Assembly (NCBI GenBank): GCA_008690995.1
Contig: VRMN01000001.1
Span: 992,001-1,056,000, forward strand
Source of the DNA: Porphyridium purpureum
Taxonomy: Eukaryota
Length of the DNA: 64,000 nt
Reading direction: 5' to 3'
Shown here: one piece after another, positions 53,376-61,170 of the stretch
How the letters are laid out: every line of letters begins with the position of its first letter
Position numbering within the stretch: the first letter of the stretch is position 1
Made by a program: the position numbers and the translations under genes
Notes under the pieces: model-generated
Told to the model about the DNA's origin: nothing
What the model saw: the letters and a program-made list of their open reading frames with translations, nothing else
Databases searched by the model: none

Positions 53376-54182
53376 CTAAGCAGTCATTCGCTTGGCCTCT
53401 TCGAGCTCCATGGCTTTTCGGATCTTCTCTTGCTTGTGCTGGCTCTTGATGCCCATGATGCCTCCGCCCCACTGCTTCCTGATCTCCGTGTATCTGTCAT
53501 TGAAGTTTCCACGAACCGACTCGATTAATTTTGCCAGCTCGTTCTTGTCGTCGGGTCGGACCCCGGTGAACGCGACAACGGTGGCCTTCTTCTTGTGGAC
53601 CACTTCGCCCAAACGCGCCTTGCCCTTGACGATGCAGTACGGCACGTCCATCTTGTGGCACAGCGCGGGGAGCCACAGAACCATCTCAATGGGATCCACG
53701 TCGTGCGCAATCACCACAAGCAGGGCCTTCTTCTGCTCCACCAGTTCCACAATATGGTTCAGACCATACTTCACAAAGACCGGCTTCTTGGAGTCGGCTG
53801 CCGCCGCGCCGTCTGCCTTCTCTTGCGCTGCCTTATTCAGACGCTCCTTCTTGGCCGCTCTGTCCTCCGGCTTGTACTTTGCCAGCAGCTTGAACAGCTG
53901 CGAGCTCAGATTTTTGTCGAGCGTCTTGGTGAACTGCCACACGCTTGGCGGCACCTTGAGGCGCATCGTCAAGATCCTCCTCTGCCTCTGAACCCGCACA
54001 TACTTCGGCCACTTGACGAAGCGCGACAGATTTCTCTTGGGTTGGATATCCTGGCCAATCCCAAAGTTCTTCGGGCGCTTCTCAAACAGCGGATGCTTCG
54101 GCGCCTTCTCGATCGTCTTCTTCAGCGCGGCCGGCGCCTCCGCGACCTTCTTGCCCTTCCCCGTAACTTTCTTCGGAGCCAT
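53376..54182 (-). CDS. RPL7A: 60S ribosomal protein L7a (eL8)
   Basis: [54 protein letters not shown] at 54182. Confidence 0.98.
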
Positions 54183-54572
54183 CGCAGCGTGCCGCACGAC
54201 GAGGTTCCTCTCCTACCTCCCTTTTCCCAGCTGTCTCTGCACTTACTCCCGTCTCCTCACCAAACTTTTTCCCTGCACATACCCCTCCCCCCCTCACGCC
54301 AATTCCCTTCTATCATCAAATGACCCATTCTTCGTACAAAGTACACGTTTCTCTTCTTCCTTCGGGTCCCCGCCGGGAAGCCCATCCGACGGCGCGGGTT
54401 AGATCGAGGGTTGCACATTTCCGCCTTCGCTCCGCGCCAAACCCTCAATCTAACTAACCCTATTCATTCAGGGAAAAAAAAACAAAAACAACTGACCCCA
54501 CGAACCGAAAGCCGAACCGACTGTACCTCCTCATCCCCAAACACCCCTTTGATTTTTGTTGTCCTTCTTCCT

Positions 54573-55369
54573 CTTGGAATTTCTCCCTTTCTGCTTTGTA
54601 ACCGAATCAACAAAACCGGACCGCTTCACCGATAACAGGAACTGGAAACCGCCACACCCCGGAAACTGACAAACCGACGACGAACCGACACACCGAAACG
54701 AACGGAAGGACAAGCAGGACAATCAGAGAAAAGTGGCTAGAAAGGAAGAGAGGACAGAAAATTCAACTTATAGGGGACTACGAGAGGGAGTGGACCGGTC
54801 TTGACAAGTGAAGGGTGATGGAAGGTACGTTTAAACCCCAGCTGCCTTTTTAAAAACACTCCAGACCGATATCCGCTCGCACAACACGCTAGCGTGCCTC
54901 TCCCGCAAATCCAACCCAAGTCTTCCAACGACTGCCTCAATCCAACTAACCAATTCTCTTTTTATTCTATTTGCCCTTACCTCTTCTTCTACCTTGACCT
55001 GGAAATTCCTGGGAACCAGCTTGCCCCTTCGTCCTTTTATACCCTTCGTCCTTGCTCTTTCCAGCAAGGACGGGAGAACAAATTTCTCCAACAGGACGAA
55101 TTTCCACCACAGGTTTTGATTCGTTCCACAACTCGCAACCACAGCCGGCCACGTATCCGGAAAATGGCCGGGAGGGCGCGTCAAGAACGAATCCAGAAGC
55201 TTCGGCCGGCCTTTGACCTTTGCACAAGGCCACACAAAACGACAATGACAAACATTTCGCAGGTCCGAGATCATCACGCTTCTCGAACAATCTTTCATCA
55301 TAGAACTTTCTAGGGTTTTGTACTCAAAACCCTACGGCGTCTCTCGGGGCGGAACCCTAAAATTCCACG
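54573..55369 (-). repeat. 3' LTR
   Basis: Direct repeat of 59537-60333; no differences seen by eye and the ORF-track translations of both copies are identical. 8-bp inverted repeat TGGAATTT/AAATTCCA inset 2 nt from each end. Confidence 0.95.
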
Positions 55370-58300
55370 CTCCTCCTTCCGGTCTGAGGGACGCGTAACT
55401 TCTCCCAGCACTTAATGTGGCCCTCCGGAAATAAGGCCTTGGTCATTAAGTCCGCCACATTTTCGTCCGTCTTCACAAATGCCAGTTTCACAAGTTTCTG
55501 CTTTTCGCACACCTGATGCAACCAGGCCAAATCTGTTGCTCGGGTTATCGCCATATGATGCAACTTTGGCGAGTACCCCATCTCTATTGCTCGCATCACA
55601 GCTTGATTGTCACACATCAAAATCACCGAGAACTCTCCGTCACGTATACTTCGCAAGAAAGACAATGCAGGAAACAACGAGAGTTGCACAGTTTCCTCTA
55701 GGGCGGCCAGCTCCGACTCTGAAGTCGACGAGCTCACGAAACGCTGCTTTCTTGAAGACCAATCCACTAGGTACTTGTAATCTCCAGCAACTAAGTACGT
55801 TGCTCTTCCAGAAGTCGACACACGACTCTCTGGACAACCAGCAAAGTCAGCATCCGTGTATCCAAGAATGTTCACCATTCTGATGCCTTCCTTGAGATTC
55901 CCCAACACGTGATACTCCAATGCTTCCCGAGGTGTTTTCAAATACTGCACGACTCGTACGAGCAGCCTTTCTGCTGCCACATTCCACTTGTCAACGTACC
56001 GGGCAATCATACCGACTGCATACGCAATATCAGGTCGAACCGTTCTGGCGAGCCACATCAGCCTCCCGACGTGTTCTCTTACTTTCAAAGTCTTCCAGAT
56101 GACTTGATAATTCAGAACTTCCTCGCCATCTAGCTTCTCAGATGGTGACTTCACGGCACGCAATACGCGTCTAATATCCTGCTCAAATTCCCGAATGACC
56201 ACATCTTGATACTCTTGATTCGCCAAACTCACGCTCCCATTTTTGAGGGAAATGCTCGTCCCCAGGAATCTCAAGGATCCTCCTTCCGTCAATAGTTCTG
56301 GTGCTTTTTCTATGAGAAACTCTTGTTTCAATTCTTCGATGATTCCTGGGCGTTCCTCCTCTCGACAGGCTAATAGACCATCATCCACGTACAGAGCCAA
56401 CAACGCAACTGACGAACTTGCAGCATTTCTCCGGACGTACACATTCTTTTCACCATGCACGAGCTTCCACTGGAACTTTTGCAATCTCCTCCGAGCATCT
56501 TGTGAGAAATCCGAGCCGCTCCTGGGCAAGCCATACAGCGCCTTTCTCAGCCTGACTACTGTGTCTTTTGAATCACAAATTTCACGCGGTAAGTATGCAA
56601 ACGTAGGTGGCCCAGACAGGTCCGCATGGAGGTATGCCGAGCTGATGTCGAAACTAACAATCTGAAGGCCCAGAATTGCAGCCACAGCTATTATCATTCG
56701 GATAGCTGACAAACCAGCAGGCGTCTCATAATCAAAAATGTCATTCGTCGCAGCTCCATCGGACCCCCATATCCTGTTTCCCCCGGCCACCAAGCGGCAC
56801 TTCACCTTGCGAAATTCTTCCGGCATCTCAGCAAATTTCAGACCGAAAATGAAATGTGTGCGTACGAAACGAGCACCAGGTTGCCTCCGGGCCTCCTCCA
56901 GCGTCAAGGGACTCTCATCCCATACCCCAAATTTCAGCATGGATTTGACTTCTTTTTCCATCGCGGCTCGTCCTTGCTCAGACGCCAACGCCGCTCCAGT
57001 TTTCAGCAAAGTCGTTAAGTTCAACTGTGGGATCGTCACTGGACCACCCGTGCCTGCTGCCCGTTCTTCGTCAACCACTCTCACTTTCAATGCCTCGATC
57101 TCTTTCTCAAGCTCCGCTTCTCTAGCTCTGAGAGCATCGATACGACGATCCAAGTCCTGCACCGCTTCAACCGCGGATGGTTCGTCCACTTCTGGCAACT
57201 CTTCCTGCTGGCTCAGGCTCACCATCTCTCGTTCAATTCCCTTTAAAGGGAACTCATGGGTAAATGCCTTAAAATCCTGAGTGCGAATTACTTTTGGGGT
57301 CTCACTCGTCCAGTCATCCCGAGGAAGCACCAAAATTGCCATCGGATGCTCTCCAACGCCGACGAGAATGCCAACTTTTCCTCGCGGTGCATACTTATTG
57401 TCAGGCTGATCATCTTTGTAGACCACCTTGCACCCGAATGGCAAACTAAGATTTCTCGGCGACCATTTTTCACCATGTCGTAATTCAAACGGCGTCTTTC
57501 CAGACTTCCTGCCCACGTGAAGTCTATTCGTCATGAACGCGAAATGCTGCGCGGCGTGCATGAACCAACGCTTCCCGAGTCCGGCCTGCACAAGATTCGC
57601 ACGGATTCCCTGATTCAGCGTGTGGTGAAACCGCTCCTGTTCAGCATGACTGTTTGGCCTGTACGGAATCCCCACCTCGTGCTTTATGAGGTGTTCACGC
57701 ACCAGTCTCCCCACATCTCCCTTGAACTCATTCCCATCATCCGTTCGCAAAACCTTCGGCCATCCTCTCCCGGCTTGCACACTTTTCCAAGCGTCCGCAA
57801 CCGCCGTGTGGGTTTTCGCACGTAGCCCCGCCAATGTCACCCATCCTGTGGCTCTGTCGATATGCGTCAAAATAAACTTTGAACCATCTACCGACTTCAC
57901 ATTTCGCCCAGGCTCCACCAAGTCAATTCCGACTTCATCATTGAATGACAATGCACTGACATCTTTCTCCAGCCTTCGGGCCGGGCGTCGCTTTATCTTC
58001 GCCACGACACACGTCTCACAGTCTCTTTGCATAGGCATGTGAGTCAACTCGTGTTCCGAAGCAGCCACGCTCTGATTTTTCCCGTCAAGCTCGGGAACCA
58101 CTTCTTCAACATTTTCCAACGTGCATATTTCCTTCCCCTCGGGCCTCGTTTCCATCAGTCCCTTCTGCCAATCAATCTTAGGATTCACCATCTTGAGCCA
58201 TTTCCACCCTAAGATGGCATCCATACGAATGGGACCGATATAAAACTCGACGTTCCCTATCCAGAAACCGAGGTCCACCGCAAGCACAATGGGGCCGTGC

Positions 58301-58521
58301 ACCTTCATTCTCTGTCCTCCCGCAAGCTCGACCATGCATTCATCGCAACTGGACTTTACGCTTGCGTCCAAGAATCGGGACCCCAGGAAATTATGCGACG
58401 CTCCACTGTCAATCAAGAAGTCGATTTTTGAACCACTCACTTTCCCATGTTTGTAGAAGAGCCTTGACCTCGCACCCTCGTGCGCAACACCTTCCACAAC
58501 ACCCATTACAGGAGGCTCCAT
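55357..58521 (-). CDS. pol: Pol polyprotein: protease-integrase-RT-RNase H (probably expressed as Gag-Pol by -1 frameshift)
   Basis: PR LIDSGASHNF; INT HELTH..CETC, VGIDLV, RTDDGNEF, QERF; RT KCRLVAGG, DISSAYL, LRKALYGL, LYVDD; RNase H YTDADFAG, ESEL, CDNQ, NVADLMTK. Confidence 0.95.
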   Translation of the reverse strand: MEPPVMGVVEGVAHEGARSRLFYKHGKVSGSKIDFLIDSGASHNFLGSRFLDASVKSSCDECMVELAGGQRMKVHGPIVLAVDLGFWIGNVEFYIGPIRMDAILGWKWLKMVNPKIDWQKGLMETRPEGKEICTLENVEEVVPELDGKNQSVAASEHELTHMPMQRDCETCVVAKIKRRPARRLEKDVSALSFNDEVGIDLVEPGRNVKSVDGSKFILTHIDRATGWVTLAGLRAKTHTAVADAWKSVQAGRGWPKVLRTDDGNEFKGDVGRLVREHLIKHEVGIPYRPNSHAEQERFHHTLNQGIRANLVQAGLGKRWFMHAAQHFAFMTNRLHVGRKSGKTPFELRHGEKWSPRNLSLPFGCKVVYKDDQPDNKYAPRGKVGILVGVGEHPMAILVLPRDDWTSETPKVIRTQDFKAFTHEFPLKGIEREMVSLSQQEELPEVDEPSAVEAVQDLDRRIDALRAREAELEKEIEALKVRVVDEERAAGTGGPVTIPQLNLTTLLKTGAALASEQGRAAMEKEVKSMLKFGVWDESPLTLEEARRQPGARFVRTHFIFGLKFAEMPEEFRKVKCRLVAGGNRIWGSDGAATNDIFDYETPAGLSAIRMIIAVAAILGLQIVSFDISSAYLHADLSGPPTFAYLPREICDSKDTVVRLRKALYGLPRSGSDFSQDARRRLQKFQWKLVHGEKNVYVRRNAASSSVALLALYVDDGLLACREEERPGIIEELKQEFLIEKAPELLTEGGSLRFLGTSISLKNGSVSLANQEYQDVVIREFEQDIRRVLRAVKSPSEKLDGEEVLNYQVIWKTLKVREHVGRLMWLARTVRPDIAYAVGMIARYVDKWNVAAERLLVRVVQYLKTPREALEYHVLGNLKEGIRMVNILGYTDADFAGCPESRVSTSGRATYLVAGDYKYLVDWSSRKQRFVSSSTSESELAALEETVQLSLFPALSFLRSIRDGEFSVILMCDNQAVMRAIEMGYSPKLHHMAITRATDLAWLHQVCEKQKLVKLAFVKTDENVADLMTKALFPEGHIKCWEKLRVPQTGRRSVEF
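55370..55380 (-). other. Polypurine tract
   Basis: Minus-strand GGAAGGAGGAG directly abuts the 3' LTR. Confidence 0.85.
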
Positions 58522-58569
58522 TCCCCTCGAGATCTCCTCCTGTCTTGGCTCTCGAGGTCTTAGTTTTCC
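58508..58569 (-). promoter_or_regulatory. Putative -1 programmed ribosomal frameshift signal (slippery site + H-type pseudoknot)
   Basis: G_GAA_AAC immediately before the gag stop, a 5-nt spacer, and two perfect 8-bp stems. The pol frame is -1 and open from the slip site. Confidence 0.8.
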
Positions 58570-59507
58570 GGCTCTGGCGGACCACCTGCCAAGCGCTCCT
58601 TCAATTTAGGGCATTTGGGCTTAATGTGTCCACGTTCTCCACAATGGTAACACTTCACTTTGGTCTTGCCAGACTTCCGCTTGTCCATGGCTCCCAAATC
58701 CATTGGTGCGCTACCAGAATGCGACGAGAACGCCCTGCTATGAGTCGATGACGAGTTCTTGATCACTTGACTCATATCTCCTCCGAACTTTGCAACCTGC
58801 TCAGCTGCCAACGCAACTTTCAGTGATTCTTCCAAGGTCCTTGTGTCCTGACGGGCCACCTCAATACGCAGTTTCTCCTTCAAGCCCAGCGTGAAGATGG
58901 TGTTCAGTTCTGCATCTGTCACATCTTCAACTGATAACGCTGTCATCCTGAGATTCTGCTCAAATTCTGCGACCGTCATTTTCCCTTGCTTCAACTGATA
59001 CAGATTGGTGCGCGCTGTCAAATGCGCCTGCGGCGGCTCAAACGCTGTGCGCACGAAGTTTGCGAACGCATCCCATCCGGCCTCTGCAAGGCCCTTTCTC
59101 TGCTCCTCCGGACGAGCTGCCCAAAGCAGCGCTGCGTCCCTCTCGAAAAAGCGACTTGCAACAATCACTTTCTGCGAGTCCAAAGCATCTGCGGGCATGC
59201 AGATATCCAGGTCGCTCTTCATTCGCATCAGCCATTCATTGACAACGAGCTTGTCACGCTGACCATCAAACTTTCTCAAACTGCGCCCAATTAACGCGGC
59301 CATGGCACGATCGTTGTCACCAGACCCAGACGCCACGGTCTGCTGGCGCAACAAAACATGCATCATTTCATGGAGGTTACGATTCGCTTCCTGCACTTGT
59401 GCCATCATCATCTCCTGTCCCGCAATGCGCGCATGCAGCTGATTAGCTGCCTCAATCCATGCCGCATTCTCCTGCGGGACATTCATTTCCATTTCATGGC
59501 TTTCCAT
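58560..59507 (-). CDS. gag: Gag (capsid + CCHC nucleocapsid)
   Basis: KFDG..EWL..W..F..F, LKQG.MTVAEF, FTLGLK, APMDLG, CYHCGERGHIKPKC. First ATG is 59507. Confidence 0.93.
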   Translation of the reverse strand: MESHEMEMNVPQENAAWIEAANQLHARIAGQEMMMAQVQEANRNLHEMMHVLLRQQTVASGSGDNDRAMAALIGRSLRKFDGQRDKLVVNEWLMRMKSDLDICMPADALDSQKVIVASRFFERDAALLWAARPEEQRKGLAEAGWDAFANFVRTAFEPPQAHLTARTNLYQLKQGKMTVAEFEQNLRMTALSVEDVTDAELNTIFTLGLKEKLRIEVARQDTRTLEESLKVALAAEQVAKFGGDMSQVIKNSSSTHSRAFSSHSGSAPMDLGAMDKRKSGKTKVKCYHCGERGHIKPKCPKLKERLAGGPPEPEN

Positions 59508-59518
59508 TTTCTCCAAAC

Positions 59519-59536
59519 AACCGGGCGATGATACCA
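59519..59536 (-). other. Primer-binding site, probably for initiator tRNA-Met
   Basis: TGGTATCATCGCCCGGTT abuts the 5' LTR and resembles the TGGTATCAGAGC-type iMet PBS. Confidence 0.85.
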
Positions 59537-60333
59537 CTTGGAATTTCTCCCTTTCTGCTTTGTAACCGAATCAACAAAACCGGACCGCTTCACCGATAAC
59601 AGGAACTGGAAACCGCCACACCCCGGAAACTGACAAACCGACGACGAACCGACACACCGAAACGAACGGAAGGACAAGCAGGACAATCAGAGAAAAGTGG
59701 CTAGAAAGGAAGAGAGGACAGAAAATTCAACTTATAGGGGACTACGAGAGGGAGTGGACCGGTCTTGACAAGTGAAGGGTGATGGAAGGTACGTTTAAAC
59801 CCCAGCTGCCTTTTTAAAAACACTCCAGACCGATATCCGCTCGCACAACACGCTAGCGTGCCTCTCCCGCAAATCCAACCCAAGTCTTCCAACGACTGCC
59901 TCAATCCAACTAACCAATTCTCTTTTTATTCTATTTGCCCTTACCTCTTCTTCTACCTTGACCTGGAAATTCCTGGGAACCAGCTTGCCCCTTCGTCCTT
60001 TTATACCCTTCGTCCTTGCTCTTTCCAGCAAGGACGGGAGAACAAATTTCTCCAACAGGACGAATTTCCACCACAGGTTTTGATTCGTTCCACAACTCGC
60101 AACCACAGCCGGCCACGTATCCGGAAAATGGCCGGGAGGGCGCGTCAAGAACGAATCCAGAAGCTTCGGCCGGCCTTTGACCTTTGCACAAGGCCACACA
60201 AAACGACAATGACAAACATTTCGCAGGTCCGAGATCATCACGCTTCTCGAACAATCTTTCATCATAGAACTTTCTAGGGTTTTGTACTCAAAACCCTACG
60301 GCGTCTCTCGGGGCGGAACCCTAAAATTCCACG
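59537..60333 (-). repeat. 5' LTR
   Basis: Direct repeat of 54573-55369; contains a minus-strand TATAAAA at about 59999-60005. Confidence 0.95.
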
Positions 60334-61170
60334 TTCCTCCTCCCCTTTGCGACTTCCCTCCTATCGTTGTACTTGCATGCTATAGAAACAGTGTTATTTA
60401 TCGATACATGCTGGCCGAACTTGCGAACATGGTCATACCTAGTAAACCGGTGGAGTTGTATTATCACGACTTACTCTTCGAGGCCCCTTTTCGTAGTGTT
60501 TCAATTACGCAAGCTAGCCCGCTTATAGTGTTTTTTTGGTTTGAGGGGAGCGACGTTTTACTGGAGTGCCGCATTTTCTTTCTGTGTTTTGTTCTTAGGG
60601 TATTGCCCTTCCTATTAAAACAGGTTGTTCAGATATGGAAAAGATGAAGGGGAAAAAATGGTAAACAAGGTGAATGCAAGTAGAAGAAAAATAAGAGAGG
60701 AAGAGCGGGGAGGGGGCGGGGAAAAGAGAGGGGAGTGGGGAGGGGGAAGGGAAGGTGAAGGGTGCACAACGTGAAGAGGAAGGGTGAGTACGTGCTGTTT
60801 GGTTAAAGTGTGTGGCGTGTGGGTTGCGCGTGGTACGAGCAAATGGACAGAGCATGCGAGTGAGTTTGTGTAAGGGGAGGGCGGCAGCTGGGAAACTCAG
60901 GGACTAGTGAAACGAAGAAACCGGGAGGGAAGGGGCGTGCACGGTTTCGGGCGTCGACGTTTCGACGAAGGAAGGGCGGCGTTTCGTGAGAGGGGCGTTG
61001 TCCACTTTGGGCGTGGGTACGAGGTCTTGACGGCGTTGGCACGGAGCAAAAGATACGTGCGCGTTTCGTTGAACGTGTTGGTCGTGCGTTGTGCTGTTCG
61101 CCTCCCTTAACGTCCATGCGTTTTCGGACGCGCGTGGGTCGTGGAGGCGCGCGGTGAGGTTTCGAGCATC

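Follow-up and report, generated by a model that had tools for sequence, protein, structure and literature searches.

At which base does a retrotransposon end when its long terminal repeats (LTRs) continue past the TG…CA motif? The question is raised by a complete LTR retrotransposon of Porphyridium purpureum, which lies on the minus strand at positions 54573-60333 of the 64-kb stretch of DNA analysed here (the window). No feature of retroviral and LTR-element integration is more constant than the terminal CA, and the reason for its retention is poorly understood. Here CA is intact yet is not the joined base, in a strain-polymorphic family with identical LTRs. The element was inserted recently and belongs to a multi-copy family of copia order; its genomic copies end CG…AG inside a 5-bp target-site duplication.

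Termini and target-site duplication at the locus

LTR alignment placed the 3' LTR at 54573-55369 and the 5' LTR at 59537-60333, both on the minus strand, both 797 bp long and identical in sequence. In element sense they read CG-TGGAATTT…AAATTCCA-AG (CG-TGG…CCA-AG). The TG…CA cores (54575-55367 and 59539-60331) span 793 bp without a single difference, and exact identity exceeds them by exactly 2 nt per side, CT at 54573/59537 and CG at 55368/60332, as the original prediction had claimed. When one or two mismatches are allowed the alignment reaches 54570 and 60344, a point that the prediction missed, because the host flanks are pyrimidine-rich. At the integrated ends, the retained dinucleotides are AG in sense at the unique 5' (U5) end (54573-54574, minus strand) and CG at the unique 3' (U3) end (60332-60333, minus strand), and both are also present at other insertions. 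The two 3' ends have a terminal G in common together with the inverted repeat C(G/T)TGGAATTT, which matches at 9 of 10 positions.

Both primer sites abut these extended ends, also as predicted. A sequence resembling a primer-binding site (PBS), TGGTATC, stands immediately after the AG of the 5' LTR, and the purine tract GGAAGGAGGAG stands immediately before the CG of the 3' LTR, with zero spare bases between either site and the LTR. The PBS begins TGGTATCA, and over its first 8 nt it is identical to the tRNA-Met PBS of plants in PMC3852365; its assignment to initiator-Met tRNA and its 18-nt extent (59519-59536, minus strand) are predictions. The purine tract (55370-55380, minus strand), the putative plus-strand primer, also encodes the end of pol. 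Since the pol frame traverses the tract and the retained CG and ends inside the 3' LTR (55357-55380), those bases are also under coding constraint. An Rfam scan over the element gave no match.

An end-offset scan at this locus found that the 5-bp duplication TTCCT fits when the ends are drawn two bases outside TG and CA (+2/+2), with a left copy at 54568-54572 and a right copy at 60334-60338 (neither has a strand). If TG/CA are taken as the ends, the flanks contain no duplication of 4-9 bp, in agreement with the claim that TTCCT lies outside the extra dinucleotides. Unnoticed in the prediction, a 6-bp alternative fits this locus equally well (TTCCTC, with the ends drawn at +1/+2). The chance of a 5-mer match between these flanks is ~0.001-0.0014 per comparison, and many offsets were scanned at one locus, so the evidence for TTCCT from this locus alone is weak. 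No further copies or solo LTRs of the element were found within the window.

A sister family with a different LTR has the purine-tract region in common (55364-55399), with loose ends in runs X1, X2 and X3. Its pol ends …GRRSMD, implying CA rather than CG before TGGA at the U3 boundary, which would make the first C there a possible conserved base, judged from the sister-family protein and the loose ends.

Other insertions in public sequencing runs

The stretch is fully or partly present in 20 of 24 listed public runs, and the contigs of six runs were aligned to the LTRs. Copies were thus compared via run contigs, in place of whole-assembly alignment, and depth ratios were taken only as a sign that a sequence is multi-copy, never as a copy number. 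Run X3 carries the empty site: its sequence matches the window through 54573 and then from 60340 onward, with a single TTCCT and neither CT nor CG. The single TTCCT had been predicted for an empty allele and supports both duplication copies assigned by the scan. This insertion is absent from X3, and the family is polymorphic among strains.

Two further insertions have recognizable flank pairs. In run X1, a left flank ending CTTTT stops exactly at the extended end, and a right flank opens with CTTTT after CG. The other pair, GGGTC/GGGTC, is in run X3 and likewise lies outside the extended ends. These pairs, drawn from 10 within-run comparisons with a chance of ~0.0014 each, fit only the model with two extra bases per end and a 5-bp duplication. 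The 6-bp model was rejected because it fits neither pair. The model with TG/CA ends was rejected as well, as both pairs fail it and the contigs have no break at TG or CA. The 5-bp duplication is therefore supported by three insertions and one empty site.

Among the matches listed, each of the 14 distinct other host junctions (8 at U5, 6 at U3) has its break at the extended end or beyond it. Copies ending at TG or CA with adjacent duplications were looked for in the run contigs, and the junctions listed include none (0 of 14 break at either motif). Contigs in which the LTRs are collapsed behave in the same way. They begin at 59537 (X5 record 27; X14 records 10-13) and finish at 60333 (X5 record 30; X14 record 15) and are not interrupted at TG or CA; X5 record 30 crosses CA in an unbroken stretch of 777 nt, and thus no well-covered copy leaves the element at CA. 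CG…AG ends with a 5-bp duplication outside them are confirmed as a family-level feature, which bears out the expectation, for the copies seen, that the whole family ends in this manner.

Several other patterns appeared in the contigs. Junctions within the LTR at 55331/60295 in X3 and at 55118/60082 in X1 are perhaps truncated copies or nested insertions. In X14, contigs are far deeper in the third of the LTR on the U5 side (59557-59821) and are absent at 59827-59913; should the run be RNA, this step may delimit the R-U5 part, a start being something that contigs cannot show. In run X9, which is recorded as another organism, the element (compared over 54573-55900) occurs in a single collapsed contig of 4963 nt that shows two differences and has none of the flanking host gene, a picture compatible with contamination by a multi-copy element, with a one-LTR circle or with transfer.

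Joining of the extended ends

In LTR elements, the tRNA primer and the purine-tract primer define the ends of the linear DNA. Because both primer sites touch the integrated ends, transfer of blunt ends is the simplest reading. We give a probability of roughly 0.7 to direct use of the newly made blunt ends by the integrase, with a 5-bp stagger and without trimming of the two bases beyond CA. With reverse transcription starting from the tRNA 3' end and where the purine tract stops, the linear DNA would have the same ends as the integrated copy, and AATTCCA-(A/C)-G-OH would be the sequence at both of its 3' ends. For recognition the integrase would rely on the inner TGGAATTT repeat, and for strand transfer across the 5-bp stagger on the terminal G. 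The CA would then be a leftover or a sub-terminal binding site, inherited from an ancestor that trimmed its ends like the tobacco copia element Tnt1, which is reported to process them (reference list of PMC3907296).

Primer sites that abut the integrated ends are the layout of Ty1, which needs no 3' processing (PMC8487063), and the U3 end of foamy virus is left unprocessed (PMC9728412). The intact D-35-E integrase, with its retroviral type of fold, also counts in favour of blunt joining. The comparison with Ty1 made in the original prediction thus stands as far as the joining of unprocessed ends is concerned. It does not extend to the joined base, since Ty1 ends in CA and needs CA, whereas the ends here are AG-3' and CG-3' (PMC8487063).

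Several points weigh against blunt joining or against the evidence for the ends. Ty1 integrase required a terminal CA at physiological metal levels (PMC8487063), so a blunt substrate ending in G is without a tested precedent in the literature covered. A tRNA gene search for the predicted primer returned nine loci, none of which is a tRNA (0 of 9), and no such gene was found within the window either. The evidence on the ends consists of contigs alone, and the two flank pairs were joined through equal 5-mers within a run, without a spanning contig. Among the matches listed, 6 of 8 left flanks and 4 of 6 right flanks have no partner, and the tally of 14 junctions covers those matches while 13 others exist. 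Eight of the 14 are exact to the base; the other six may hide a mismatch in the last aligned bases. X1 is possibly the same strain as the window, although its other insertions are separate events.

The main alternative, though less probable, is that trimming still occurs and has shifted, which would look the same in genomic sequence. RNase H would leave 1-2 primer ribonucleotides, lengthening the linear DNA by 1-2 bp at either end, and the cut by the integrase would fall after G instead of CA. The intact catalytic triad of the integrase is compatible with this, and the shared terminal G and the 9/10 inverted repeat at the two 3' ends would suit a specific cut site. The U5 end of human immunodeficiency virus retains one primer ribonucleotide, which also counts for it. 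Shifted trimming requires, however, equal primer-removal offsets at two different primers as well as a new cut site, while the observed U3 end coincides exactly with the first pyrimidine past the purine tract and the U5 end with TGG, positions that need no extra step.

Much further down the scale, trimming could occur normally at CA and host repair could retain the 5' two-base flaps at both ends. This would account for the perfect TG…CA repeat 2 nt inside, as in the layout of processed copia elements, but bulge repair would have to favour the flap at each end of every insertion, the bases being kept in all 14 junctions listed, and the literature covered holds no precedent; we consider it improbable. 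The idea that the family ends TG…CA (or has +1/+2 ends and a 6-bp duplication) and that TTCCT is a coincidence of pyrimidine-rich flanks could draw on the fit of TTCCTC and on a right flank that resembles the purine tract, but is already refuted for the copies seen by the empty site lacking CT and CG, by pairs that fit only the 2+2 model and by contigs unbranched at TG/CA.

The family provides a direct pair of substrates, one carrying the two bases and one lacking them, for studying the gain or loss of trimming. From the LTR_retriever paper, it is likely that finders needing TG…CA, or a motif beginning with T, beside the duplication would miss or mis-trim the family. Blunt joining could also be part of a wider, more speculative picture, which we hold only tentatively. 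An old, undescribed copia-order lineage with Ty3-type gag and protease and a short integrase zinc motif may have lost 3' processing and may join G-ended blunt DNA, with TG…CA as an internal relic and the whole lineage missed or mis-trimmed by motif-based LTR annotation. If true, this lineage would be an example from nature of an integrase that has given up one of its two reactions.

Encoded proteins and relation to known elements

The pol frame (55357-58605, minus strand; 1082 aa from stop to stop, with its stop codon within the 3' LTR) encodes protease, integrase, reverse transcriptase (RT) and RNase H, in the order of Ty1/copia (Pseudoviridae). Pfam searches gave a weak match of the protease to Asp_protease_2, of gypsy/retrovirus type, and a match of the RT, located after the integrase, to the copia-type RVT_2 above the cut-off (E 1.7e-18). 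RNase H has no Pfam match and is presumably present, as judged from its motifs. Annotated Porphyridium purpureum proteins, in a cluster of 16 members on several scaffolds, match the pol protein at 99-100% identity, and the nearest full-length matches of pol otherwise are RVT_2 polyproteins at 22-29% identity. Upstream, gag (58560-59507, minus strand; 315 aa) has Pfam matches to Ty3_capsid and Retrotrans_gag and a CCHC knuckle, and overlaps pol in the -1 frame. Within the overlap (58560-58605), G GAA AAC shortly before the gag stop is a likely frameshift site.

The integrase region (57250-58146, minus strand) retains the D-35-E catalytic triad (D75, D136, E171) and an SH3-like C-terminal part. 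It is of copia type, with a weak SH3_retrovirus match below the cut-off and nearest relatives that bear RVT_2, SH3_retrovirus or gag_pre-integrs. Its zinc motif, H-x3-H-x6-C-x2-C (58009-58053, minus strand), is shortened to 6 residues between the second His and the first Cys, against 20-36 in ordinary copia, and a short form is the only one present in 25 of the 39 best relatives and in 30 of the next 108. A structural model has the retroviral integrase fold with a mean predicted local distance difference test (pLDDT) of 73.9; it is unreliable over the zinc motif (blocks at pLDDT 31-58) and uninformative on processing. The longest-span sequence match in the PDB was the 635-aa "Integrase" chain 7z0h_W (E 0.0014), which we take to be the Ty1 integrase.

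Ordinary copia controls score Retrotran_gag_2 and Pol_BBD, whereas this element has Ty3_capsid, Retrotrans_gag and Asp_protease_2 in their place. The same mix of Ty3-type gag and protease with copia-type integrase and RT was found in the Porphyridium families P0003, P0073 and P0076, whose integrases are 42-75% identical, and in the relative P0086; as it recurs in diverged relatives, it is an old lineage trait. Metagenome, viral and prokaryote collections yielded no DNA of relatives. The mixed make-up of the predicted gag and pol is real, on the basis of the proteins and not of the ends. The original prediction had called the ends gypsy-style and taken them as independent support for a chimera. 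Neither claim is supported, since a gap of 2 nt separates LTR and PBS in 7 of 9 Jatropha copia families, in three of which it is "ag" before TGGTATC (PMC3852365), and Tnt1 is reported to process its ends. Such spacers are ordinary in plant copia, and the protein mix is separate evidence.

With Ty1 of Saccharomyces cerevisiae (Pseudoviridae) the element shares the copia domain order and an integrated end that equals the predicted end of the linear DNA (PMC8487063). Ty1 differs in ending TG…CA, while this element ends CG…AG with TG…CA 2 nt inside and has gag and protease of Ty3/gypsy type. Among the features that define Ty1/copia, the 5-bp duplication is present and integrated TG…CA is absent. 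Ty3/gypsy (Metaviridae), including the Gmr1-like order, was rejected on the RVT_2 RT and, Gmr1 apart, on the integrase preceding RT. Processed plant copia elements (Tnt1; Jatropha lineages I and II) likewise have CA, two bases and then TGGTATCA, with "ag" in three Jatropha families (PMC3852365), but their two bases lie outside the defined LTR and are not integrated, as they are here. Plant copia elements without TGCA ends (Tos17 with TG…GA, AtRE1 with TA…TA, and the lotus types) have non-canonical ends and 5-bp duplications and often lie near genes (10.1101/137141, PMC9804982). In those elements TG…CA is substituted, always with T first, whereas here the motif is kept and two bases are added, with C first.

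Troyka elements have a 5' CG and a 3' terminal G (PMC12440569). Their ends are CGCCA…TGGCG with 3-bp duplications and gypsy domain order, and they are reported from animals (PMC12440569), so membership was rejected for an element with CG…AG rather than CG…CG ends, 5 bp rather than 3 bp, and copia order. GalEa-like copia occurs in red algae (CoPorcru1/2, PyRE10G), and copia elements are known from Porphyridium cruentum (PMC3587641); assignment to GalEa was also rejected, as neither the GalEa PBS TGGTAGCAGAGC nor its long integrase zinc finger, H-x4-H-x30-C-x2-C (PMC3587641), is present. Other departures from TG…CA include errantivirus ends AGT…AnT (PMC5408687), one shrimp gypsy consensus ending CT…AA (PMC3587641) and the diatom elements CoDi3.2, 4.2 and 4.3, which are without TG/CA (PMC2806351); the actual ends of the latter were not seen, and a similar case is possible there. 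The parts covered of PMC5445492, PMC5371799, PMC9751208 and PMC2774666 describe neither the family nor such ends. Across the literature covered, which excludes subscription papers, Repbase and the CoDi supplement, we found no description of the family or of any copia with C…G ends, and no element of copia order that has C…G ends and keeps TG…CA intact 2 nt further in, while non-TG…CA ends as such are already known.

The insertion missing from X3 is located upstream of a ribosomal L7Ae-family gene, ~390 bp from its start (window 53376-54572).

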